Shown: positions 11,702 to 53,539 of the stretch, in pieces
Position numbering within the stretch: position 1 is the stretch's first letter
Layout of the letters: each line of letters opens with the position of its first letter
NCBI GenBank assembly: GCA_016180435.1
Contig: JACPBG010000001.1
Location: forward strand, 216,006 to 280,005
Source of the DNA: Candidatus Sungiibacteriota bacterium
GTDB taxonomy: Bacteria; Patescibacteriota; Minisyncoccia; Sungbacterales; HO2-52-23
Direction of reading: 5' to 3'
DNA: 64,000 nt
The notes under the pieces: generated by a model
Told to the model about the DNA's origin: nothing
Databases searched by the model: none
Seen by the model: only the letters and a program-made list of their open reading frames with translations
Translations under genes and position numbers: made by a program

Positions 11702-12748
11702 TCAAAGAGAAATTACTTCCTCCCACGGCAGGTCCGGCTTGCCAAAATGACCATAAGATGCGGTGCTTAAATAAATTGGCCGGCGCAAATTAAGACGCTC
11801 AATTATGGCTTGCGGCCGAAAATCGAATTTTTCGGAAACTAGTTTTCCTAAATCCTTACCGTCGCTGGTTTCGGCATGCACCATCAAGGGCTCGGCGCGG
11901 CCAATAGCATATGCAACCGAGACCATACAATCCTTGGCAAGTCCGTTTGCCACGATATTTTTAGCCGCATATCGCGCCATATAGGCGGCCGAGCGATCCA
12001 CTTTGGTAGGGTCCTTGCCGGAAAACGCGCCGCCGCCATGCGGAATAAGCCCGCCATACGTATCCACCATGATTTTTCTGCCGGTAAGTCCGGTGTCTGC
12101 CGTAAATCCGCCGATTACAAATTTTCCGGTAGGATTGACCAAGACCTCGATTCCCGATAAATCACCAGTAACCGGATGGATCAATTTGCGCAGCAGTATT
12201 TCTTTAATTTCCGGCTGGGAGATGCTGTCCGAGTGCTGACATGATATCAATACAGCGCTCAATTTCCCATCATGCATCGTTACCTGCGATTTGCCGTCAG
12301 GGCCAAGCCATGAACATTCAGAATCGTTTCTGCGCAAATCCTCAAGGCCTTTGGTAAATTTATGCGCCAGCGAAACAGCCCGCGGAAGAAATTCCGGGGT
12401 TTCGGCAGTAGCGTATCCATACATAATACCCTGATCCCCGGCGCCTCCGGTGTCCACTCCCTGCGCGATATCCGGGGACTGACGGATGATATTCGTAACA
12501 ACTTTCAAATTATCCGCATATCCGATGTCGCGGTATATTTTTTGCGCAATTTCTCCGGCCTCAATCTCCCCCCGGGAAGTTACTTCTCCTCCCACGACCA
12601 AAAGTCCGTGGGAGCCAAAACTCTCCACAGCCACGCGGGAATGCGTATCTTTTTTAAGATATTCGTCCAAAATCGCGTCCGAGATTTGGTCGCATATTTT
12701 ATCCGGATGTCCGGAGGTTACGCTTTCTACGGTGTATGTGGTACGCAT
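11702..12748 (-). CDS. metK: S-adenosylmethionine synthetase (methionine adenosyltransferase)
   Basis: 348 aa; N-terminal ESVTSGHPDKICDQISDAILD, GGGAFSGKDPTKVDRSAAYMARYAAKN signature. Confidence 0.9.
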   Translation of the reverse strand: MRTTYTVESVTSGHPDKICDQISDAILDEYLKKDTHSRVAVESFGSHGLLVVGGEVTSRGEIEAGEIAQKIYRDIGYADNLKVVTNIIRQSPDIAQGVDTGGAGDQGIMYGYATAETPEFLPRAVSLAHKFTKGLEDLRRNDSECSWLGPDGKSQVTMHDGKLSAVLISCQHSDSISQPEIKEILLRKLIHPVTGDLSGIEVLVNPTGKFVIGGFTADTGLTGRKIMVDTYGGLIPHGGGAFSGKDPTKVDRSAAYMARYAAKNIVANGLAKDCMVSVAYAIGRAEPLMVHAETSDGKDLGKLVSEKFDFRPQAIIERLNLRRPIYLSTASYGHFGKPDLPWEEVISL

Positions 12749-12966: not shown

Positions 12967-13150
12967 GAAAAAAGCTATCGCTCCCCTTACAGGGCTGGCA
13001 TTGGCACTATTCCGCTTTTAACGGAACTTTGCTGGCGGGTCATAGGGCCAGATCCCTCACCGCACTCTGGATAAAACATAAATTTTGATTATCTATATAA
13101 TACATGCAACTATACAAAAAACAAGAAAGTTTTCCACAAACATCCGACCA
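12966..13150 (-). ncRNA. Candidate small non-coding transcript (unclassified)
   Basis: ~180-nt GC-richer stretch between two minus-strand terminators, preceded by AT-rich promoter-like sequence at ~13085-13130, ending in the terminator at 12936-12966; contains several helices (gggccagatccc, ccgcttttaacgg); no match to SRP/6S/RNase P/tmRNA motifs that I could recognise. Confidence 0.2.
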
Positions 13151-16706: not shown

Positions 16707-19481
16707 CTAGATTTTGCCGTGGCAATGCTTATACTTCTTTGGGCGGCCGTCAGAATGGGCCGCTCCGCACGGGCAGGGGTCATTGCGACTTGGTTCTTTT
16801 TGGCCTTTTAATTTAATAGAAGCTCCCATTTTTCCCGAAGAAGATTCTTCGCCCGGTTTAAATTGACTTACCGCAATATCCGGCCGGCGCTCCTCAACCC
16901 GGCGGGGATTTTCTCCGGCCATAGATATGGCGCCGACTTTAAAAATGGTGTGAACTATTTCACTGCGAATCGCGGCCTGCAGCTGCCGAAAAAGCCGCAC
17001 GCCCTCATTTTTATATTCCACTAATGGATCGCGCTGTCCGTAGGCGCGCAGGCGTACCGAATCGCGCAAATGCTCCATTTGATCAAGCTGATCCATCCAT
17101 AAAACATCAATGGTGCGAAGCATCACGGCGCGCTCGGAAGAGCGCATCTGCTCATCTCCCACGGCCTTTTCATGCTCTTCATATTTTGACTCCAAAACAT
17201 CAAATATAAAAGTGCCTATCTTATTGCGCTTCTCATCGCCGTATAATTCCTCGCCCGCAATTTCACGGAGTTTATGATGCATATCATCGGAAATCGACGC
17301 AATACTTTTTACTCCCTCGAATATTTCTTCAAGATTCCAATCGTCAATCCGATCGGCTGATGCATGAAATTCCACTAATTTTGAAACTTCTTCCTTAATC
17401 ATATCAAAAATCCTTTCGCGTAAGGTAACTTTCTCGACTTCGCTCGAAGAATAATTATCTAAGTTACCATTTGGGATTTGGGATTTGGGATTTGGGATTT
17501 CCGAAAAGAGAATATCTTTTCGGAGGCGGTATATTGAGTCCCTCTGCCTATTCAGCACATCATCAAACTCCAGCACGTGCTTTCGCGCATCAAAATGAAA
17601 CCCCTCGATTTTTTCCTGCGCGGCTTCAATAGCGCGCGATACCATGCGGTTTTCAATTGGCTGATCTTCAGGGATACCGAGAGTTTCCATCATGCGCCTC
17701 ACCCTCTCTGCCCCGAATATCCGCATCAAATCGTCTTCCATAGATACGAAAAACTGCGACTCGCCCGAATCGCCTTGCCGTCCGGCGCGTCCGCGCAACT
17801 GATTATCGATCCGGCGCGCCTCATGCCGCTCGGTGCCGATCACGCATAACCCCCCCAACCCGCGGACAATATCAGCTTCTTTCTGATCCTGCGGATTTCC
17901 TCCAAGAATTATGTCAACGCCTCGTCCGGCCATGTTGGTTGCAATTGTAACAGCACCAGCTCTGCCGGCTTGCGCGATGATCAATGCCTCGCGCTCGTGA
18001 TTTTTGGCGTTTAATACCTCATGCGGCACGCCTTCAACCTCAAGCATTTTGACCAGGCGTTCATTTTTTTCGATGGACACGGTGCCAACAAGCACCGGCT
18101 GACCTCTGCCATATCTTTCTTTTACTTCGCGTACAACTGCCTGCATTTTCCCCCGCTCGGTGCGAAATACCAAATCAGGCAAATCGCGGCGCACCATGGG
18201 GCGATGCGTGGGAACGGATATCACGTCAAGGTTATAGACCTTATGAAATTCCTCGGCCGAGGTTTGCGCGGTTCCGGTCATGCCCCCGAGTTTTTTATAC
18301 ATGCGGAAATAATTTTGAAACGTAATAGTGGCAAGGGTCCGCGATTCCTGTTCAACCCGCACGCCTTCTTTGGCCTCCACCGCCTGATGCAATCCCTCCG
18401 ACCAACGGCGCCCGGGCATAAGGCGCCCGGTAAACTCATCCACAATTGTCACTTTGCCGTCCTTTACCACATAATCGCGATCACGCGTAAATAAGGCTTG
18501 CGCCCGCAAGGCCTGTTCCAGATGATGCACAAAACGAATTCCTTTTTCCTCATAAATATTTCCGATGCCAAGCATTTGCTCAACTTTATCAATACCCGCC
18601 TCGGTGATGGATACGGCGCGCAGTTTTTCATCCACATTGTAATCAATATTTTCTTTCAGGCGCGGTACGATTTTTGAAAATACGCGGTAAAGTTCGGCGG
18701 ACTCTGCATCCGGCGCGGAAATTATCAAAGGAGTTCGCGCCTCATCAATTAAAATGGAATCCACCTCGTCAACTATGGCGTAATGATGGTGTTTTTGCCG
18801 AAGCGATTCGGGCGCATATTCTAAATTATCGCGCAAATAATCAAAGCCGAATTCGTTGTTGGTGCCGTAAGTTATGTCCGCGGCATAGGCTTCATGCCGC
18901 GCACAAGGCCGGAAATGCGAAAGGCGCGGATCATCATGACGCTGGATGTCTTGAAATTCCGGATCATAAATTCCGGAAAATTCATGGGCGATAACTCCGG
19001 TTGATACGCCCAGCGCGTGATACACCGGCCCCATCCAGCCCGCGCCAACCCGCGACAAATAATCATTCGGAGTAACCAAATGCGCGCCCCTGCCTTCAAG
19101 CGAATTCAAATAAAGCGGCAGGGTGGCCACCAGGGTTTTTCCCTCGCCGGTTTTCATCTCGGCAATTTTTCCCTCATGAAGCACAATTCCACCGGCTAAC
19201 TGCACATCAAAATGCCGCTGATTAAGTTTTCTCTTGGCAGCTTCCCGAACCGCGGCAAACGCCTCAGGAAGAATTTCTAACAGGGATCCGATCCCTGTTA
19301 CAGGGATCGGATCCCTGTTTATTCCTAGACGCCGCTTAAATTCAACCGTAAGATTTCTAAGTTCTTCATCTGAGAATTTTTCAAAATCTTTCTCCAATTC
19401 ATTGATCTCATCAACAATCGGCTGGAGAGATTTTATATAGCGTTCATTGGCATCCCCAAAAATTTTTCCCAAGATTGACAT
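16707..19481 (-). CDS. secA: Protein translocase subunit SecA
   Basis: 924 aa; DEAD-like motor (MKTGEGKTLVATLP, DEVDSILIDEARTPLIIS), C-terminal zinc-binding CPCG...HCHG; carries two unusual in-frame insertions (17470-17499; palindrome near 19270-19320). Confidence 0.95.
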   Translation of the reverse strand: MSILGKIFGDANERYIKSLQPIVDEINELEKDFEKFSDEELRNLTVEFKRRLGINRDPIPVTGIGSLLEILPEAFAAVREAAKRKLNQRHFDVQLAGGIVLHEGKIAEMKTGEGKTLVATLPLYLNSLEGRGAHLVTPNDYLSRVGAGWMGPVYHALGVSTGVIAHEFSGIYDPEFQDIQRHDDPRLSHFRPCARHEAYAADITYGTNNEFGFDYLRDNLEYAPESLRQKHHHYAIVDEVDSILIDEARTPLIISAPDAESAELYRVFSKIVPRLKENIDYNVDEKLRAVSITEAGIDKVEQMLGIGNIYEEKGIRFVHHLEQALRAQALFTRDRDYVVKDGKVTIVDEFTGRLMPGRRWSEGLHQAVEAKEGVRVEQESRTLATITFQNYFRMYKKLGGMTGTAQTSAEEFHKVYNLDVISVPTHRPMVRRDLPDLVFRTERGKMQAVVREVKERYGRGQPVLVGTVSIEKNERLVKMLEVEGVPHEVLNAKNHEREALIIAQAGRAGAVTIATNMAGRGVDIILGGNPQDQKEADIVRGLGGLCVIGTERHEARRIDNQLRGRAGRQGDSGESQFFVSMEDDLMRIFGAERVRRMMETLGIPEDQPIENRMVSRAIEAAQEKIEGFHFDARKHVLEFDDVLNRQRDSIYRLRKDILFSEIPNPKSQIPNGNLDNYSSSEVEKVTLRERIFDMIKEEVSKLVEFHASADRIDDWNLEEIFEGVKSIASISDDMHHKLREIAGEELYGDEKRNKIGTFIFDVLESKYEEHEKAVGDEQMRSSERAVMLRTIDVLWMDQLDQMEHLRDSVRLRAYGQRDPLVEYKNEGVRLFRQLQAAIRSEIVHTIFKVGAISMAGENPRRVEERRPDIAVSQFKPGEESSSGKMGASIKLKGQKEPSRNDPCPCGAAHSDGRPKKYKHCHGKI
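17470..17499. repeat. In-frame simple-sequence repeat (TTGGGAT/GGGATTT)x4 inside secA
   Basis: ttgggatttgggatttgggatttgggattt encodes IPNPKSQIPNG in SecA. Confidence 0.85.
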
Positions 19482-26183: not shown

Positions 26184-26284
26184 ACCCCGTTAGAGATTTG
26201 GTTATCCACATTACACATGCGCGTCAAAAAACACCTAAAACGTATTTCATCAGTACTACAAGAATCTTACATCTCTAACGGGGT
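26184..26284. mobile_element. Small TIR-bounded element (MITE-like), copy a: ACCCCGTTAGAGAT ... ATCTCTAACGGGGT
   Basis: 14-bp perfect terminal inverted repeats flanking ~73 bp non-coding DNA; same TIR family at 37057, 39537, 52234, 52257. Confidence 0.65.
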
Positions 26285-35659: not shown

Positions 35660-37048
35660 CTATACCGCACTCTTAAATATTTTCAACCTCGACAAAACCC
35701 TTTGCCTGATATCCTTAAAAACCGCACGATCATATTCGTCAATTGAGAAAAACTCTTTCCAGGAAAATTTCCATTGGGGAAGCGCTTTTTTAATGGCCAG
35801 CGCATAAGCCGGCGTTGTCAAAATTCCCAAAAGAAGCATTTCGGATGCCGCGCCCCATAATCCGAAGAAATAAGTAAAAACAGCATTAAGAAGCACAACC
35901 GCAACGGTGCGCGAAACCGTAACCGCAAAAAGTTTCTGTTGGGCACGCAGGGCATAAAAAACCGGCACCGCAACAGTCCTGAATCCCGAAACGGGCAAAC
36001 CAAGAAGTAGGAGATAAAAATACGGGAGTGCCTCCCAATATTTTGGAATGACGAGTGCGACAAAGACCGGAGCGCCCGCGGCCGCAACAATGAATAATAT
36101 AAAATTCGCGGCAGTCGCATATTTGGTGGCGCGATTTAGCTGACGGGATAAACGTTCCGGGTCATCAGCTGATCGCGGCAAAACCGGGGTCAAAATTTCC
36201 CGCAACGGAAAAAGCGATTTTACATGAGCCGTAAGCCCTTGCGCCAGCGCAATCAGCGCCACCCCCTCTATTCCCACAAAGGCCTTTACGAGAAACGGCC
36301 GGATATTCTGCGCAAAATTATTGATAAAATCGCTCGCAATCGCCCATTTGCCGTGCCGCAAGAAAAGATCAAAAATCGCGCTGCGGCATTCCGCCCAAGA
36401 CGGAATAATAAAAAGCGGATCTCGGCGATATCCTAAACTTATCAAAACCGGAACAAGCATAGAGGCAAAACCCGCCCAAAGCGCCTCCTGCGCGCCGAAT
36501 ACCGCAAAAAAATAAAAAAGCGCGATTGAAACAATCCGGGCCATGCTTGAAATCAACCGATAGGCGTTTCCCCACCCAAAATCAAGAAATATCTGAAATT
36601 TAAGCTTATAGGCGGTTTCAAACGGAACCGCAATAAAAAAAAGCGAGACCACCGCCAGATGCGGAATTCCTTCGCTCTCGCCCAGCCAGGATGCGATAAA
36701 TCGCGAACCGAATAAAAAAAGCAAAAAAAATACCGCGCTCACCAACGCCACAAACCAAATATAAAAACTGAAAACCGCCTGGGCCCTGCGGCGATCACTC
36801 GCAAGATACGATGCAACGTCGCTTACCACCACATTTTCCAAACCGGCTAAAAAAAATCCGGCCATAAACTCATAGGCCGCAAGCGCCAGACGATAAACTC
36901 CGTATTCAAATAAGGAAAGAAGACGAAGAAGAGAGATAGCGGTCAGCGCATCAATAAATTTCCAGACCACAGTTCCCGCACCGGAAATGGCAATGCCGCG
37001 TATCACAACCTTCCCCATGTTTTCTTTTTCCTCGATATTATTATTCAT
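35660..37048 (-). CDS. Polysaccharide biosynthesis flippase (Wzx/MOP superfamily)
   Basis: 462 aa, ~12 TM helices, Polysacc_synt-like N-terminus. Confidence 0.6.
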   Translation of the reverse strand: MNNNIEEKENMGKVVIRGIAISGAGTVVWKFIDALTAISLLRLLSLFEYGVYRLALAAYEFMAGFFLAGLENVVVSDVASYLASDRRRAQAVFSFYIWFVALVSAVFFLLFLFGSRFIASWLGESEGIPHLAVVSLFFIAVPFETAYKLKFQIFLDFGWGNAYRLISSMARIVSIALFYFFAVFGAQEALWAGFASMLVPVLISLGYRRDPLFIIPSWAECRSAIFDLFLRHGKWAIASDFINNFAQNIRPFLVKAFVGIEGVALIALAQGLTAHVKSLFPLREILTPVLPRSADDPERLSRQLNRATKYATAANFILFIVAAAGAPVFVALVIPKYWEALPYFYLLLLGLPVSGFRTVAVPVFYALRAQQKLFAVTVSRTVAVVLLNAVFTYFFGLWGAASEMLLLGILTTPAYALAIKKALPQWKFSWKEFFSIDEYDRAVFKDIRQRVLSRLKIFKSAV

Positions 37049-37056
37049 CCCGTTAG

Positions 37057-37146
37057 AAGTATAATTCTTAAAAAAACACGCCTCTTAAAAATACAGGTGT
37101 TATCATTTGATCCTGTAGAAAGTATAGACCCAAACTTCTAACGGGA
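37057..37146. mobile_element. Small TIR-bounded element copy b: TCCCGTTAGAAG ... CTTCTAACGGGA
   Basis: 12-bp terminal inverted repeats of the CCCGTTAGAA family flanking ~66 bp; fills the neuC-flippase intergenic region. Confidence 0.6.
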
Positions 37147-38424
37147 TTAATAAAACCTTTTCTGGATTGAAGGATTGACCCGCGCCAGAATTTCGGCGAT
37201 ACGCGCGCCCGCCTTGCCATCCCCAAACATGGCACTTGACGGATACCGCCCATGCCGCAACTGTTTTTCGATTGCCTCTTTTATTTTTTTTTCTTCCGGC
37301 AAAACTTCAATGACATTTGCTCCACACTCTCGGCCCGTTTGCCTACTGCCGACCAGCACAGATGGCGTTCCGAAAAACGCTCCCTCGCGCAAAAAACTGG
37401 AAGAATTTCCTATGGCCGCGGAGGCATGCGCCAAAACCCGGTTAAAATCCTCCGGACTAAAATTTTTATAAAATGCGCGGTCCGGACGGCTGTTACGGAC
37501 GCGATACTCGCGAATGGCGGAAGATATTCCGTCTGATCCGGCATCCAGATTTGACACCACAAACATGGCCGGCATCTTGATTTTATCTATCGCGGCGCAT
37601 AGTGCCCGGGCATATTCGTAATTCATATTATATTCGGTGGTAACCGGATGATACAACACGAGTAAAAAGGGCTTATGCAAATCAAAATTGTCCGATCCTC
37701 CCCTTCCGTATCGCCTGAAAAAATCATTATCCAGGCCAAGATCTATACTCTTGATAAAATCAATTCCGGAAAAACCCGGCATAAAAACAAAATCCGGATT
37801 TTCTCCCATGCGTATCAGGCGCTGGCGGCTTTTTTCGGTCACGGGAAAATGCATGTGGGCAAGCTTGGTAATCGCATGACGCACGCTCTCGTCAATGGTT
37901 CCCGAAACGTCTCCGCCTTCCACATGGGCAATCGGAATATTCAAAAATGCCGCGGCCATCGCAATAGGCAAACTTTCAAATCGATCAGCGTAAATCAATA
38001 CGACATCCGGCTTTAATTTCTCAAAAAGCTTTGGAATTCCTAAAAGCCCAAGTCCGGCGCTCTTTACCATAACGCGCGTATTCCCTCCTTCCAAAAATAG
38101 CGGAAGTCGCGCGTGTATGGGAAATCCCGCGCCCATAAGCAATTTGGGCAGATATTCCAATTTTTCAACTTCACCTCTTTTTCCTAAAATTTTTGTGGTG
38201 CGGGCCTTTATATACCAAGAAAAAGCTTTCAAAAATGAAACCGGCTCGCCATGAAATAAATACCAAAACAAGTGGTCAAAATAAAAATTGGTTACGGCGA
38301 TAACCTGCAATTCCAACTGCGGATGTTTCTGAATCGCCTCCATAACCGGTTTAACTCTGCCATAAATCGCGCGGTCATTCACCACCACGCAAATTTTTCT
38401 TTTTTTCATTTGATGTGTTTCCAT
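37147..38424 (-). CDS. neuC: UDP-N-acetylglucosamine 2-epimerase (hydrolysing), NeuC-like
   Basis: 425 aa; Epimerase_2 family; HVEGG motif (IAHVEGGDVSGTIDE). Confidence 0.75.
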   Translation of the reverse strand: METHQMKKRKICVVVNDRAIYGRVKPVMEAIQKHPQLELQVIAVTNFYFDHLFWYLFHGEPVSFLKAFSWYIKARTTKILGKRGEVEKLEYLPKLLMGAGFPIHARLPLFLEGGNTRVMVKSAGLGLLGIPKLFEKLKPDVVLIYADRFESLPIAMAAAFLNIPIAHVEGGDVSGTIDESVRHAITKLAHMHFPVTEKSRQRLIRMGENPDFVFMPGFSGIDFIKSIDLGLDNDFFRRYGRGGSDNFDLHKPFLLVLYHPVTTEYNMNYEYARALCAAIDKIKMPAMFVVSNLDAGSDGISSAIREYRVRNSRPDRAFYKNFSPEDFNRVLAHASAAIGNSSSFLREGAFFGTPSVLVGSRQTGRECGANVIEVLPEEKKIKEAIEKQLRHGRYPSSAMFGDGKAGARIAEILARVNPSIQKRFY

Positions 38425-39475: not shown

Positions 39476-39760
39476 CTAAAACTCACAAAACACAGAAACC
39501 AGAACTAAAATTCAAAATTCACCTAATCTCTAATTTACCCCGTTAGAAATAAACAAATATAGTAGCATCTGCAACTCGTTTTTATCGGTAAAAATAGATA
39601 ATTTCCGCACTAAAAACATCTTCTGTTTCTTTCTAACGGGGTGAACCTAATAAAATTTCTAAGGCCTAAGTTCTTAATTTCTTTATTGGACATTTTATTA
39701 GAAATTAGACAATTAGGTAATTAGAAATTGAGGCCGCTATTTGGGTTTTGTGCGTTTATT
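39476..39760. repeat. Copy E5 of the ~150-bp leader element (see 12760-12915) upstream of neuB, interrupted by a small TIR element
   Basis: acagaaaccagaactaaaattcaaaattcacctaat...[insert 39537-39642]...tttctaaggcctaagttcttaatttctttattggacattttattagaaattagacaattaggtaattagaaatt...gggttttgtgcg. Confidence 0.75.
39537..39642. mobile_element. Small TIR-bounded element copy c: ACCCCGTTAGAAA ... TTTCTAACGGGGT
   Basis: 13-bp perfect terminal inverted repeats; inserted within the repeated leader element relative to the uninterrupted copy upstream of metK. Confidence 0.7.
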
Positions 39761-40523
39761 TTTCTTCCTCCAAAATTTTTTTTAATTGCCGCTCGGATAT
39801 TTCCCAATCCTCCGGCGTATCAATATCAACGCTATATTTTACATCCATAACAAATCCGCGCACATCATTCCCATAAAAACTCTGGTCTTCTTCAAAAAGA
39901 AGCGCTGTCTTAAAAATATAAAATGCGCTGTTACGAATATATGTCTTAGGAAGATCCTGCCGGCGCCGGATAACGTTTTTTACCGAGCCACCGACAAATA
40001 ATTCCGCCCTACTCCCTTCTTGCAAATTAAATTGCCAGTGTGGGCTGTATCCGCCCGGAACTTCAACCAAACTAATAACCGAATCAGCATTACTTTGCAA
40101 AAACAAATTAAAACCATCTTTTATGCATGCTGGCGGAACGCCGGGAGTGGTTGCTTGCGTCAAAATAACAACCTTCGGTTCCCAATCCTCATTTTCTTTA
40201 AGAACCTTAACCGCATGTTGTAAGACCGGCAAAGTCGGACTCGTATCTTGCGCGAATTCCGCAGGACGCATAAACGGAACTTCGGCTCCAAATTTCTTGG
40301 CAATATCGGCAATCTCTTTATCGTCGGTTGAAACAACAACCCTATCGCACACCCCGCTTTCTTTCAATGCCTCAATAGCCCAAGCAATTAGTGGTTTCCC
40401 TAAAAAGGGTTTTATATTTTTACGCGGAATGGATTTTGACCCGCCCCGCGCCGGAATTATGCCTAAAATTTTCTTTTTTGAATCTGCCATATTCGCATTA
40501 ATGGGACTGTTGCCGAATACCAT
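39756..40523 (-). CDS. neuA: N-acylneuraminate cytidylyltransferase (CMP-sialic acid synthetase) NeuA
   Basis: 255 aa; IPARGGSKSIPRKNIKPFLGKPLIAWAIE signature of CMP-NeuAc/CMP-KDO synthetase family. Confidence 0.85.
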   Translation of the reverse strand: MVFGNSPINANMADSKKKILGIIPARGGSKSIPRKNIKPFLGKPLIAWAIEALKESGVCDRVVVSTDDKEIADIAKKFGAEVPFMRPAEFAQDTSPTLPVLQHAVKVLKENEDWEPKVVILTQATTPGVPPACIKDGFNLFLQSNADSVISLVEVPGGYSPHWQFNLQEGSRAELFVGGSVKNVIRRRQDLPKTYIRNSAFYIFKTALLFEEDQSFYGNDVRGFVMDVKYSVDIDTPEDWEISERQLKKILEEEK

Positions 40524-49702: not shown

Positions 49703-52198
49703 TTAAAAATGTAACGGGATAAATCCAACCGATCGCAACCACTTGGCCTCCCCCATTATCCCTTCATAACGAACGGTGACAGTATGAAAACCGGACGGCA
49801 CGGCCAGCGCCATATATAAACCGTTGGCTCTGACAATTTCCGCCGGAACGCCGTCAATTTCCGCCTGCCAACCCGGAAGATTGCTTTCGGAAACCACAAG
49901 CCAAGCGTCTTTTTTTGATTTGGTTTTAAATTCAAAAAAGCCGTTGCGCAATACAAATTCGGAAATACCGGCGTCATCCGCGGCAATAATACCTGACGCG
50001 CATTTAACACAATCAATATAGGTGATCTGCGAAAAATCTCTTTTTTCTTTTTGCCTAAGTTCCGTCAAAGATCCGTGCGGGAATTCAAAAACTTTTTTGG
50101 CAAAATAAAATCTGGGAAGAGCATTTTTGTTCTCATATATATAGAGAGGAATTTTGTAAGCGGAAACCTCCCGGATGCCGCGCAGTAAAAGATCGGGGTG
50201 CGCCAACCGAACTCCGGAAACAATATATTTCCCGGCCATCATGCCGAGCATATCCAGATTGGCCAAAAGCCGCTGCGTGTTTTCGCTATTGGAAAAACGC
50301 GCGGTGCCGTATTCTCCTCCGCGGGTACTGCCCAACGCCACCAGCGTGTCAAACAAATCCTGCGGAAGAATGGGGTCATACCCATCCACCGACGGCATCA
50401 CCAGCATATTTATATTGGTCCAGCCGCTTATATTTTTTAGTTGAGCAGATGCGCGCAATTGCTCAATTGAGGGTCTATATTCGGAAGTCACAACTTCACT
50501 GAATTTTCCCCGATCAAGCAAAAATGGAAAAGTCCGGTACAACATGCGCTCCTCGGCCGGAACGAATTTGTCAAAAAGAGCGCTGCGCGATCCAAGTTCG
50601 GATTGCGGCATCGCGCCAATTTCAATTGATGCTTTCATGATAACCACAAACAAAAACAGTGAAATTGCGTATCCGGCCCGGCTGAATAAATAATATCCGA
50701 TCCGTTTCCATATGAAAAGAACCGTCAGAATAAAACTGCTGATAAGGCCCAGAAACGGCAGTAGAAAATAAACATCCGAAAAAGAAAGAAACGCGCGCCA
50801 AGCCGCCAGACCGCGTAAAATCGCATCCTGATAATGAATCGGGTCCTTATCATATCCAAAATTTCCGTAGATAAATTTAGAGAAGACAATCTGCAAAAAA
50901 TCCCCTATTTGTTTCCAAAAAGCTCCGCCAAATATATTTAACGAAACAACCAGAAGAGAAAAAGCGCCGATTCCAGCGCCCAGAAACACAAACATCTTTC
51001 TCATCGTTTTTTCTTCGCGCAAGTCCCGCATAAGATCAAACCCAACGGCTCCGAGGCAAGCCAGATAAAACGTTCCCGCAAACATCCATTTATGCATATA
51101 CCGGAAAAGATTAAACACCGGCAATTGCTGTAAAAAATATGAGATGGGCGATTTTTCAAAAGCAATAGCCAGCGCAACCAGATACACGCCGGCAAACACC
51201 GCCGCCACCGCAATATTACGCCGCGCTCCATTGTTCTCCGGCGCCACGCTCCGTCCGGCTTTGGTCTTCACTATCAACATAACTGCGGCAATTGCCGAAA
51301 AAAATATAAAAACGCCCACATACATGCTCTTTACGCCCACCGAAATATACGGAAAATATAGATAATTGGGAAAGAAAAGCAGGATAAAATCGCCGATCTT
51401 AATGCCGCTCCCCAGCGCAGTTGCCAAATCTATGCCTTCGGAGCGGACGCTCAAAGAAATGTATCTAAACACCGGCAAAATCAGGGGAAGCGCCACTGCC
51501 AGCCCCACGGCAACCATTGGAATAATAAAATATAACCACTCCTTCAGAACATTTAACCATCCCAACCGTTCCACCGCAAAAAGATAAATAAAAACGAATG
51601 CCCCGAAAAGAAACAGTGAATAAACCGCCATTTGAGGGTATCCGCCCAAAAACACAAATCCAACTCCGGCCCCGGCAATAATTTTCCAGAACCAGGGCCG
51701 CGTCACTCCGGAACGCATTCGCAAAAATATCCAGATAAGAAATGGGGTTAAAAAGAAAACATTCGCCACCCAAAGATTTGCCAAAAAATTTATAGTAAAA
51801 GACGAGAGGTAAGCGATGCCTATCAAACTTGAAGCCAAACGCGACAGTTTGAGCGCGCGCCCGGCCATATAAGAAAAAAAGAGCGTCAGAAAATAATTAA
51901 TAAAAAGGCGCAAATGCACTCCGTCTATACCCTCCAGATACGAAAAAATTATGCGATTCAAAGGATCTAAAAATCCTCCGGCATGGCCCAGATATAAAGG
52001 TGATCCGGAAAATGTCCAGGGGCTCCATAAAAAAGAATCTCCCCGCCGGAGGGCATCGTGATAAAAATCAAAATAGGGATAAAAGATGGAGGCGGTGTCC
52101 AGATGTGCAAACACCCAATCCTGAAAAAAGATCGGGAAAAATGCGATTATAAGCAATATCGCAAAAAAAATGATGATTCCGAGGTCTTGCTTTTGCAT
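49703..52198 (-). CDS. YfhO-family polytopic membrane protein (putative lipid-linked glycan/teichoic-acid glycosylation)
   Basis: 831 aa; many TM helices, C-terminal beta-rich domain ending SNLPGWQAEIDG...VRYEG, paralogous to 61863-63950. Confidence 0.55.
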   Translation of the reverse strand: MQKQDLGIIIFFAILLIIAFFPIFFQDWVFAHLDTASIFYPYFDFYHDALRRGDSFLWSPWTFSGSPLYLGHAGGFLDPLNRIIFSYLEGIDGVHLRLFINYFLTLFFSYMAGRALKLSRLASSLIGIAYLSSFTINFLANLWVANVFFLTPFLIWIFLRMRSGVTRPWFWKIIAGAGVGFVFLGGYPQMAVYSLFLFGAFVFIYLFAVERLGWLNVLKEWLYFIIPMVAVGLAVALPLILPVFRYISLSVRSEGIDLATALGSGIKIGDFILLFFPNYLYFPYISVGVKSMYVGVFIFFSAIAAVMLIVKTKAGRSVAPENNGARRNIAVAAVFAGVYLVALAIAFEKSPISYFLQQLPVFNLFRYMHKWMFAGTFYLACLGAVGFDLMRDLREEKTMRKMFVFLGAGIGAFSLLVVSLNIFGGAFWKQIGDFLQIVFSKFIYGNFGYDKDPIHYQDAILRGLAAWRAFLSFSDVYFLLPFLGLISSFILTVLFIWKRIGYYLFSRAGYAISLFLFVVIMKASIEIGAMPQSELGSRSALFDKFVPAEERMLYRTFPFLLDRGKFSEVVTSEYRPSIEQLRASAQLKNISGWTNINMLVMPSVDGYDPILPQDLFDTLVALGSTRGGEYGTARFSNSENTQRLLANLDMLGMMAGKYIVSGVRLAHPDLLLRGIREVSAYKIPLYIYENKNALPRFYFAKKVFEFPHGSLTELRQKEKRDFSQITYIDCVKCASGIIAADDAGISEFVLRNGFFEFKTKSKKDAWLVVSESNLPGWQAEIDGVPAEIVRANGLYMALAVPSGFHTVTVRYEGIMGEAKWLRSVGFIPLHF

Positions 52199-52233
52199 AC
52201 GATTATGCGTTAATATAGGCGGGATAGCTATAA

Positions 52234-52440
52234 ACCCCGTTAGAAACGGGCGCTTCGCCCCGTTAGAGATTTATAGAGTATTGAACCCATTTAAGAAAAA
52301 AATCATATTTTCACTTATATAGTCGGGGTCTTGTCGCGCCATATCTCTAACGGGGTGAGCGACCTGCCAATGAAAGCATTATACTCCCATCAGCTATTTC
52401 TATCTCTACCGCGACAGAGTCGGTGGCGTTCTAACGGGGT
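52234..52440. mobile_element. Nested pair of small TIR elements (outer ACCCCGTTAGAAA...GTTCTAACGGGGT; inner CCCCGTTAGAGAT...ATCTCTAACGGGG at 52257-52354)
   Basis: Inner element sits 10 bp inside the left end of the outer element; inner TIR variant (GTTAGAGAT) is identical to copy a at 26184. Confidence 0.65.
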
Positions 52441-52498
52441 AAAACAAATAAGACGAAATCAATGTTTTATCAGTAGTAACTAAATCTGCTGAAATTTT

Positions 52499-53539
52499 AT
52501 GCGACTATTGATTACCGGTGGATCAGGGTTTATGGGATCAAACTTCATCCGCTACCTTTACAACGCCTACAAAACGGCGCGTATTTGGAATTTGGATCTT
52601 TTAACTTACGCCGGCAATCCGGAAAATCTTGCTGATATTGAAGCAACTGAATCAAAAATGCCGGATGATGAACGCCGCTATACTTTTATCAAAGGCGACG
52701 TGGCAGACCGAGAACTGATCCAGCGCCTGTTTGAAGAAAATGAATTTGATACGGTATTCAATTTCGCCGCTGAAAGCCATGTGGATCGCTCCATCGTGAA
52801 CTCGGTTAATTTCATACGCACCAATATCCAGGGAACCCATACGCTTTTGGATGCGGCCCGGAATTTTAATACTCCTCATTTCATTCACGTATCAACGGAC
52901 GAGGTCTACGGAGACCGCCTGGAGGGATCGGCAGATGAGAAGACCCTGCTTAAACCCTCCAATCCATATTCGGCGTCCAAGGCCGGAGCGGACTTCCTGG
53001 CCCAGGCATATATCAGAACCTATAATCTTCCCATAACCATAATACGCTCATGCAATAATTTCGGGCCCTATCAATATCCGGAAAAATTAATACCCCTTAC
53101 CATTACCAACCTTCTGGAGGGAAAAAAGGTTCCGGTCCATGGCAGCGGCCTGCATGTCCGAAGCTGGATTTATGTAAAGGATTTCTGCGAGGCCCTGGAT
53201 GCCATCTGGCAAAAAGCCCATACGCGAGAAATTTACAACATAGGCGGAGTTGAGAAAAAAAATATGGATATAGTGGCGCATATCGCATCCTGCCTGCAAA
53301 AAGACGCCCACGCCTGGATAGAACATGTAAACGACCGCCCGGGACAGGACGTCCGCTACTCAATAACGCACGCCAAACTAAAATCCCACATAGGATGGGA
53401 GCCAAAATACGAATACAAAACCGCGTTTGCGGATACTATAAACTGGTATCTTGCCAACCCTGAATGGTGGAAAAAAATACGCGATACCAAAGAATTTACG
53501 GATCATCTGGATCTTCAATCCAAAGGAATGCGATTTTGA
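52499..53539 (+). CDS. rfbB: dTDP-glucose 4,6-dehydratase
   Basis: 346 aa; TGGSGFMGSN, YxxxK (YSASK), characteristic RmlB regions. Confidence 0.9.
   Translation: MRLLITGGSGFMGSNFIRYLYNAYKTARIWNLDLLTYAGNPENLADIEATESKMPDDERRYTFIKGDVADRELIQRLFEENEFDTVFNFAAESHVDRSIVNSVNFIRTNIQGTHTLLDAARNFNTPHFIHVSTDEVYGDRLEGSADEKTLLKPSNPYSASKAGADFLAQAYIRTYNLPITIIRSCNNFGPYQYPEKLIPLTITNLLEGKKVPVHGSGLHVRSWIYVKDFCEALDAIWQKAHTREIYNIGGVEKKNMDIVAHIASCLQKDAHAWIEHVNDRPGQDVRYSITHAKLKSHIGWEPKYEYKTAFADTINWYLANPEWWKKIRDTKEFTDHLDLQSKGMRF

Follow-up and report, generated by a model that had tools for sequence, protein, structure and literature searches.

Bacterial MITEs such as Correia of Neisseria, RUP of Streptococcus pneumoniae and ERIC/IRU of the enterobacteria are each confined to one genus or family, share their interior sequence among copies and are flanked by TA. 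The locus described here lies in a stretch of 64,000 nucleotides from a Candidatus Sungiibacteriota bacterium (the window), where a short element bounded by inverted repeats was found inside another. These elements resemble the bacterial MITEs in being non-coding and about 100-200 bp long, in carrying terminal inverted repeats and short flanking direct repeats, in their tight intergenic placement and in their occasional nesting. They differ from Correia, RUP and ERIC in that only the ends of about 13 nt are shared, across at least six phyla, and in that the flanks are 4 bp of the form TNNA, with the 4-mer tied to the orientation of the element.

In the features of their ends and flanks, the nearest systems appear to be IS1380, which has CC ends and repeats of 4-5 bp, and piggyBac, which has a TTAA target and CCCTAGAAAGATA ends. 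The CC(C) ends, the 4-bp flank with T first and A last and the 13-nt terminal repeat containing TAGA are all alike, but no such transposase was found beside the ends here and TTAA is rare, being found in 3 of the 123 family elements listed. We treat this resemblance as a lead. The PATEs, which derive from IS200/IS605, are comparable in their orientation-specific insertion beside a subfamily-specific tetranucleotide, in the hairpins near the ends of what we call the outer subfamily and in the ability of the inserted unit to carry its own terminal 4-mer. To our knowledge, however, PATEs have neither terminal inverted repeats nor target duplications, whereas the ends here are inverted repeats and unusual 4-mers are duplicated.

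Invertons, such as those of the Bacteroides capsule loci and fimS, also consist of an AT-rich segment between short inverted repeats, placed upstream of surface-glycan genes, and the inner segment studied here does occur in both orientations among its relatives. As far as we know, invertons have no flanking direct repeats, lie upstream of the genes that they control and are found in both orientations within one population; none of these three features holds here. Integron attC sites are similar in their length (60-140 bp), in GTTAGA/TCTAAC-like inverted ends around a variable centre and in their tight packing between ORFs, but no cassette arrays and no integrase accompany the present elements. 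The attC assignment was rejected on polarity, as attC sites read 5'-RYYYAAC...GTTRRRY-3' and the elements read 5'-GTTAGAR...YTCTAAC-3' on either strand (GTTAGAG...CTCTAAC in the window). We consider it likely that the locus consists of two non-autonomous, non-coding MITE-type elements, one nested in the other, which belong to a very widespread family.

The nested locus and its neighbourhood

The window is chromosomal, with cysS, dnaB, recR, metK with a SAM riboswitch, secA and murB, and the 33 kb from about 26 to 59 kb form a run of surface-glycan genes. Within this run the nested element occupies a gap of 300 bp, from which a YfhO-like gene (49703-52198, minus strand) and rfbB (52499-53539, plus strand) diverge, and no sign was found that it regulates either of them. 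Its parts, together with the other family members of the window, are as follows.

52231-52234, plus strand: left flank TAAA of the outer element, the same 4-mer as the right flank
52235-52439, plus strand: outer element, 205 bp from CCCC to GGGG and about 103 bp without the inner insert, defined by its arms and by full-length homology
52234-52245, plus strand: left terminal inverted repeat of the outer element, ACCCCGTTAGAA, from the repeat finder and the motif scan
52254-52257, plus strand: TTCG, the bases of the outer element that border the insertion point on the left; in uninterrupted relatives the sequence is ...GGGCGCTTCG^CGACC..., where the caret marks that point
52258-52355, minus strand: inner element of 98 bp whose 13-nt arms CCCCGTTAGAGAT are perfect; its homologues in L164 and L162 point the other way
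52258-52270 and 52343-52355: the two inner arms CCCCGTTAGAGAT, perfect at 13 of 13 nt
52356-52359, plus strand: TGAG, four additional bases that are missing from uninterrupted outer elements in the alignment and differ from TTCG
52365-52394, plus strand: decayed copy of a hairpin (GATGGGAG...CTCCCATC in relatives), with its left arm mutated in the window
52429-52440, plus strand: right terminal inverted repeat of the outer element, TTCTAACGGGGT, from the repeat finder and the motif scan
52440-52443, plus strand: right flank TAAA of the outer element, kept in 97-100% of the copies of its subfamily
26185-26283, no strand assigned: family member a, 99 bp, flanks TCAA/TCAA, the same in all public assemblies read and with an interior unrelated to the others
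37048-37146, no strand assigned: family member b, 99 bp long, with TCCCGTTAGAAGT arms and TTCA/TTAA flanks, identical in 7 assemblies
39538-39641, no strand assigned: family member c, 104 bp long and 82 bp upstream of neuB, with TTTA/TGAA flanks

The outer inverted-repeat pair at 52235-52439 encloses the inner pair at 52258-52355, such that the half-sites at 52235, 52258, 52346 and 52430 follow one another in the order + + - -. The repeat finder gave outer arms ACCCCGTTAGAA and TTCTAACGGGGT of 12 nt with 100% complementarity, and inner arms TCGCCCCGTTAGAGAT and ATCTCTAACGGGGTGA (52255-52270 and 52343-52358) of 16 nt with 94%, perfect over the central 13 nt. With the inner element in parentheses, the region reads TAAA-CCCCGTTAGAAACGGGCGCTTCG-(CCCCGTTAGAGAT...72 nt...ATCTCTAACGGGG)-TGAG-CGACC...GGCGTTCTAACGGGG-TAAA. 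The inner element begins after a gap of 12 nt from the end of the outer left arm, at a TCG^CGA palindrome, and its two flanks (TTCG and TGAG) do not form a matching target duplication. Both elements (98 and 205 bp) are non-coding, and the ORFs of at least 40 aa that touch the region (52170-52322 and 52331-52483) cross the boundaries of the elements.

Half-sites of the form CCCCGTTAGA with at most one mismatch number 11 in the window, where 2.7 are expected, and none of 100 shuffles reached 11. They form five inverted pairs (26185/26283, 37048/37146, 39538/39641, 52258/52355 and 52235/52439), whose AT-rich interiors differ from copy to copy and were found to be no more alike than shuffled sequence, so that the ends alone are common to the five elements. 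Direct repeats that could represent target duplication are present at the outer element (TAAA/TAAA) and at element a (TCAA/TCAA) and are absent at the inner element, b and c. The TTTA/TGAA flank pair of element c was observed 9 times in other genomes.

A sequence-only reading of this locus had described one terminal-inverted-repeat element inside another, and this description is confirmed for both pairs of arms and is far from chance. The inner element had been placed 10 bp from the outer left end, which is roughly correct as it starts 12 nt past the outer left arm. It had also been matched to copy a at 26184. The 13-nt arm CCCCGTTAGAGAT is indeed identical between the two, but when the two elements were compared only these ends matched, and the inner element is thus not a copy of a.

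Element b spans exactly the interval from the stop codon of the UDP-GlcNAc 2-epimerase gene to the ATG of the Wzx-like flippase gene (37044-37150), the A of this ATG being the final base of the element. Elsewhere in the window, the SAM riboswitch upstream of metK (11702-12748, minus strand) was located at 12972-13077 on the minus strand (RF00162, 53 bits). The 5' part of secA (16707-19481, minus strand) contains an in-frame palindromic tandem GGATCCGATCCCTGTTACAGGGATCGGATCCCTGTT stretch at 19276-19320, which looks like a small insertion tolerated by the protein.

A family of elements in several phyla

One genome per species was scanned with the pattern CCCCGTTAGAR-N78-103-YTCTAACGGGG, for which about 3.5 matches are expected by chance according to our own calculation. 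The pattern was found at 120 or more loci in MAGs from six or more phyla. Going by the record titles, the matches listed include 46 from Patescibacteria, 19 from Omnitrophota, 18 from 'Deltaproteobacteria'/Desulfobacterota, 14 from Planctomycetota, 4 from Nitrospirota and 2 from Elusimicrobiota, besides others. No match was present in 2.9 million viral contigs.

The family is defined by a terminal inverted repeat of about 13 nt, (A)CCCCGTTAGARAT, by a length of mostly 100-125 bp and by a 4-bp TNNA flanking repeat, giving boundaries of the form TNNA-CCCCGTTAGA...TCTAACGGGG-TNNA. The consensus of the 246 ends of the listed elements is TnnACCCCGTTAGARAT, where the T at position -4 (85%) and the A at position -1 (85%) are conserved outside the searched pattern. 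Identical 4-mers border CCCC...GGGG in 73 of the 123 listed elements, whereas permuted pairings gave a mean of 10.8 and a maximum of 20; identical 5-mers were found in none. The duplicated 4-mers are mostly TAAA/TTTA, TGAA/TTCA and TCAA/TTGA. Rare 4-mers were also observed to be duplicated (CAAG/CAAG and TATG/TATG) and therefore all four positions are part of the repeat. These family-wide 4-bp direct repeats are the signature of transposition with a 4-bp staggered cut and not of an invertible promoter switch.

The family is therefore mobile, as the earlier reading had supposed for the elements of this locus, and, a cognate transposase apart, the structural hallmarks of MITEs are all found in it: the elements are short and non-coding, have terminal inverted repeats and family-level target duplication, and occur as copies at unrelated loci. 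Subfamilies common to different MAGs were recognised in an all-against-all comparison of the interiors and, as an example, two loci of a single MAG (L102 and L118) hold copies that are 99% identical. Genomes rich in copies include the Ga0209541/Ga0209542 populations, JAFDFZ01 and PEUO01. The elements are intergenic, often lie 0-20 bp from the neighbouring ORFs and have ordinary genes as neighbours. For 92 elements the neighbours were co-directional in 55 cases, convergent in 19 and divergent in 18, as predicted for random intergenic insertion.

The genomes of Patescibacteria (the candidate phyla radiation) and of Omnitrophota are small and compact. The presence of one 13-nt end in Patescibacteria, Omnitrophota, Planctomycetota, Desulfobacterota and Nitrospirota points to either a very conserved transposase or repeated horizontal transfer, which in the latter reading would have taken place between co-occurring organisms of groundwater and sediment. 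The family could serve as a ready marker for horizontal transfer and strain typing, and its elements may break metagenome assemblies. It is apparently undescribed: text searches of the literature matched the motif strings to unrelated primers only and returned no description of the motif, and no paper was found which pairs MITEs with Patescibacteria, Saccharibacteria or Omnitrophota.

Three features of the listed elements may be added. Element lengths (L018-L137, a distribution truncated by the length range scanned) have their mode at 100-102 bp and smaller bumps at about 110-111 and 119-122 bp, which lie about one and two helical turns from the mode. Mini-elements of about 30 bp, composed of two arms and a joiner of 9-11 nt, were observed at L044:3405-3435, L054:1262-1291, L050:6014-6042, L094:6816-6844 and L110:2660-2688; most of them have no matching flanks, and they may be remnants of excision or deletion. 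At L077:893-1054 one copy of an element lies within another, related copy, and perfect TGAA repeats border each of the two. The inserted copy has TGAA on either side where a homologue has a single TGAA, and this is the cleanest nested case with an inferable empty site.

Uninterrupted relatives and the history of the nesting

The outer element was found to be homologous from end to end with two elements of 104 bp in Saccharibacteria MAGs, L029:809-912 and L104:1811-1914, at a distance of 0.10-0.11. The only gap in this comparison is 52258-52359 of the window, which is the inner element together with 4 bp. The inner element and these 4 bp are therefore an insertion into the outer element with exact boundaries, and the discrete boundaries on which the idea of nesting had depended are borne out. 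The gene beside the L029 copy is unrelated to rfbB, so that these are loci other than that of the window. Since the relatives read GCTTCG^CGACC where the window reads GCTTCG-(inner element)-TGAG-CGACC, the added TGAG does not duplicate the target.

The outer element belongs to a multi-copy subfamily. A scan of JGI metagenomes for the right end of this subfamily gave 61 loci, most of them 100-104 bp long and flanked by TAAA on both sides. Among 39-41 unique loci the pair TAAA/TAAA was present in about 90% and TTTA/TTTA never, and a G at position -5 occurred in 87%, on the left side alone. Conservation of TAAA is stronger on the right side than on the left. When other subfamilies were oriented by the homology of their interiors, the orientation of their flanks was likewise found to be fixed. 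Stop codons were considered as the cause of the fixed TAAA orientation and rejected, as a long ORF ends in the left TAA at only 7 of 41 loci.

Members of the outer subfamily also carry a hairpin of 10-12 bp (columns 31-40 and 50-60 of alignment A2, e.g. L029:836-866) which is maintained through compensatory changes, with one pair being CG in 13 copies and UA in 10; it has been lost in the window copy. In many copies (L166, L168, L176, L187, L197 and L208) the left end is CCCCGTAAGCACAGG in place of CCCCGTTAGAACGGG. The two ends of these copies are consequently no longer good inverted repeats, and TAAA is nonetheless present on either side.

The composite of outer and inner element was observed at three further unrelated loci (L159, L162 and L164), where a second pair of arms occupies the same position. 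The inner pair is preceded by TTCG or TTCA and followed by CGAG or TGAG and then by CGACC-like sequence, all four composites having YGAG on the right of the inner element. At L159 only a 44-bp inner remnant is left at this place. Homology was detected between the inner interiors of L164 and L162 (z = 5.0). The window interior is related to both as its reverse complement (z = 6.4 for L164 and 3.9 for L162) and not in the forward direction (z = -0.2 and -0.1 respectively), and BLASTN aligned it to the minus strand of L164 over 44 nt at 86% identity, the outer parts being co-linear. The flanks remain with the outer element whichever orientation the inner part has.

With the flanks fixed to the outer element and YGAG in all four composites, the simplest account is one old nesting which was followed by inversion in place. 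Most likely the composite had a single origin and afterwards travelled as one unit on its outer ends, and the inner part would later have drifted and, in the lineage of the window, flipped once between its own inverted ends. On this account the nesting would not be recent in the genome analysed here. The outer parts alone do not group the four composites in a tree, which is built on about 100 nt and poorly resolved and places L164 among the short forms, so that a single origin of the composite is no more than probable.

The nesting might instead not be inherited, with the TCG^CGA palindrome acting as a hot spot that was hit independently, in either orientation, in several genomes. We regard this as possible but doubtful. 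The failure of the composites to form one clade in the outer tree would fit such repeated hits, as would the contrast within L164, whose outer part is only 5% from the short forms and whose inner part is about 36% from that of the window. Extra half-sites inside elements are also enriched about 100-fold family-wide, being present in 8 of the 123 listed elements against 0.08 expected, and a different insert, the 16-bp palindrome CCAAGTCTGACTTGGC with TTCG/TTCG flanks, occupies the same site (about 23 nt into the element) in L161, L165 and L177. Against independent hits, the YGAG shared by all four composites is not a copy of TTCG or TTCA, and the constancy of the flanks under either inner orientation fits one event and inversion in place; furthermore, the limited sample of loci contained no copy of the inner subfamily standing on its own. 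We conclude that the nesting is probably old and inherited, or else site-specific.

The nesting had previously been taken as a hallmark of active transposition or recombination. This does not hold, since the same composite is present at three other unrelated loci, with an inner part that is diverged and in two of them oppositely oriented, and the nesting here is thus not evidence of recent activity. The suggestion that the element can target itself is borne out to the extent that half-sites inside elements are far more frequent than expected, but the target of the insertion is not arm sequence. A preference for CCCGTTAGA-like sequence was not found either, as the inner element entered the TCG^CGA palindrome, and the usual flank of the family is TNNA.

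Mechanism of movement and alternative readings

Under the MITE reading, a putative transposase acting in trans would bind the 13-nt ends and move the elements by staggered cuts of 4 bp. Neither a transposase nor an autonomous element with such ends turned up in the window or in the roughly 190 loci that were fetched (about 1.5 Mb), a small search space outside which the partner may lie. All-against-all clustering of 617 neighbouring ORFs revealed no recurrent transposase, and Pfam scans of all window ORFs of at least 120 aa gave neither a recombinase nor a transposase. Pairs of ends lying 130-4000 bp apart with matching flanks were examined as candidates and rejected, being two small elements around housekeeping genes or weak matches. 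L189 was also rejected as an autonomous partner; it has a truncated end beside an ORF of 71 aa which, judged by sequence resemblance, may encode a HicB-type antitoxin.

Several observations count against a plain MITE. The five window elements have no shared interior, which is unusual for MITE copies in one genome, and the TTCG and TGAG flanks of the inner element are no duplication. Furthermore, among the 50 listed elements with non-identical flanks, a class to which b, c and the inner element of the window belong, 12 read GGGG-TVAA outward at both ends against 1 in the opposite sense, and the pair TTCA..TAAA recurs 9 times. A symmetric enzyme with plain target duplication predicts neither the fixed orientation of the flanks nor the GGGG-TVAA bias, and these are therefore not explained by a plain cut-and-paste model. 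The orientation-locked flanks, the bias of the flank pairs, the kept hairpin and the lack of a partner leave room for an element that specifies or carries its own flank.

Such a non-DDE mechanism, in which the flanking tetranucleotide is specified by the element or travels with it, is judged unlikely. It would accommodate 4-mers that are heritable and fixed in orientation within subfamilies, the stronger conservation of the right TAAA, the recurrence of non-identical flank pairs, the arrival of the nested insert with 4 bp unlike its target and the compensatory changes in the hairpins of the outer subfamily. The candidates are a piggyBac-like carry-over of 4-nt overhangs, insertion of the IS200/IS605 type 3' of a guide-matched tetranucleotide and core recombination of the IS110 type, and even jointly they have a low probability. 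The clear 13-nt terminal inverted repeats are atypical of IS200/IS605 and of most IS110 elements, the duplication of rare 4-mers on both sides is what true target duplication would give, and no HUH, DEDD or piggyBac-like gene was seen among the neighbouring ORFs of the fetched loci. We put forward only tentatively, as a minority reading, an element-programmed insertion operating across phyla, in which the element itself provides the match to the target, be it a DNA guide, a recombination core or overhangs of 4 nt that it carries along. If it were true, both the hot spot of the nesting and the flipping of the inner element would follow as side effects of this chemistry.

An inverton- or shufflon-like promoter switch in two layers, in which a recombinase encoded elsewhere flips the 98-bp segment, the 205-bp segment or both for the YfhO-like gene or rfbB, was our first working idea. 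It was suggested by the glycan context, the elements lying in the 33-kb surface-glycan region upstream of the YfhO-like gene, rfbB, neuB and the Wzx-like gene, and by AT-rich interiors that are unlike each other. That homologous composites contain the inner element in either orientation, with unmoved flanks, also agrees with it and, in our own reading of the alignment, three inner homologues share a weak TTMTTA-17-TATAAA that points outward through one arm. This promoter-like end, however, faces the 3' end of a gene in both L164 and L162, a promoter scan of 52100-52600 was empty and no tyrosine or serine recombinase is present among the window ORFs. The 19 of 92 elements that lie between convergent genes argue further against it, as a promoter switch would not be placed in this way. 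The idea was dropped on the 4-bp repeats, which signal transposition, on the random placement and on the invariance of the assemblies described below, and is now considered very improbable.

The view that these are immobile sites, either paired regulator-binding sites or the closing stem of a structured RNA, would suit a 13-nt sequence conserved across phyla around a variable interior but can be dismissed, given the exact 4-bp direct repeats at the flanks, the same subfamily at dozens of unrelated loci, the lack of an Rfam match (nothing reached the gathering thresholds here, and a chance miRNA match scored 17.6 bits against a threshold of 100 bits, E = 1.4), the placement unrelated to gene starts and the comparison of filled with uninterrupted copies, which already contradicts it.

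Public assemblies (Logan) that carry exactly the proteins of the window were compared for signs of activity in this organism. Elements a and b are identical in every assembly read. Contigs from three samples span both inner junctions, in the window orientation alone, and the five contigs that enter the locus from the YfhO-like side all have the left end of the outer element and the beginning of the inner one exactly as in the window. These assemblies, in which a rare orientation might be missed, thus gave no evidence of ongoing movement or switching at the nested locus, which is probably an old composite insertion between two glycan genes. The message of the locus itself is accordingly modest, and the main value of the analysis lies rather in the breadth of the family and its orientation-locked flanks.

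Public contigs do often end near element c and the nested locus, which had seemed to favour a switch. Contigs from a dozen samples break at 39558-40494 and 52244-52280, and the limits that recur in many samples are ends at 52274, 39558 and 40494 and a start at 52250. These positions fit neither inversion nor excision and were rejected as evidence for them. They appear to be better matched by a strain difference of 1 nt in an A-run, and the contig limits probably reflect small differences of this kind, e.g. one A more or less in AGAAACGGG, the forms at issue being AGAAACGGG and AGAACGGG. There is no public record of the exact product of the cytidylyltransferase gene (39756-40523), which suggests that a strain-variable segment starts inside element c.
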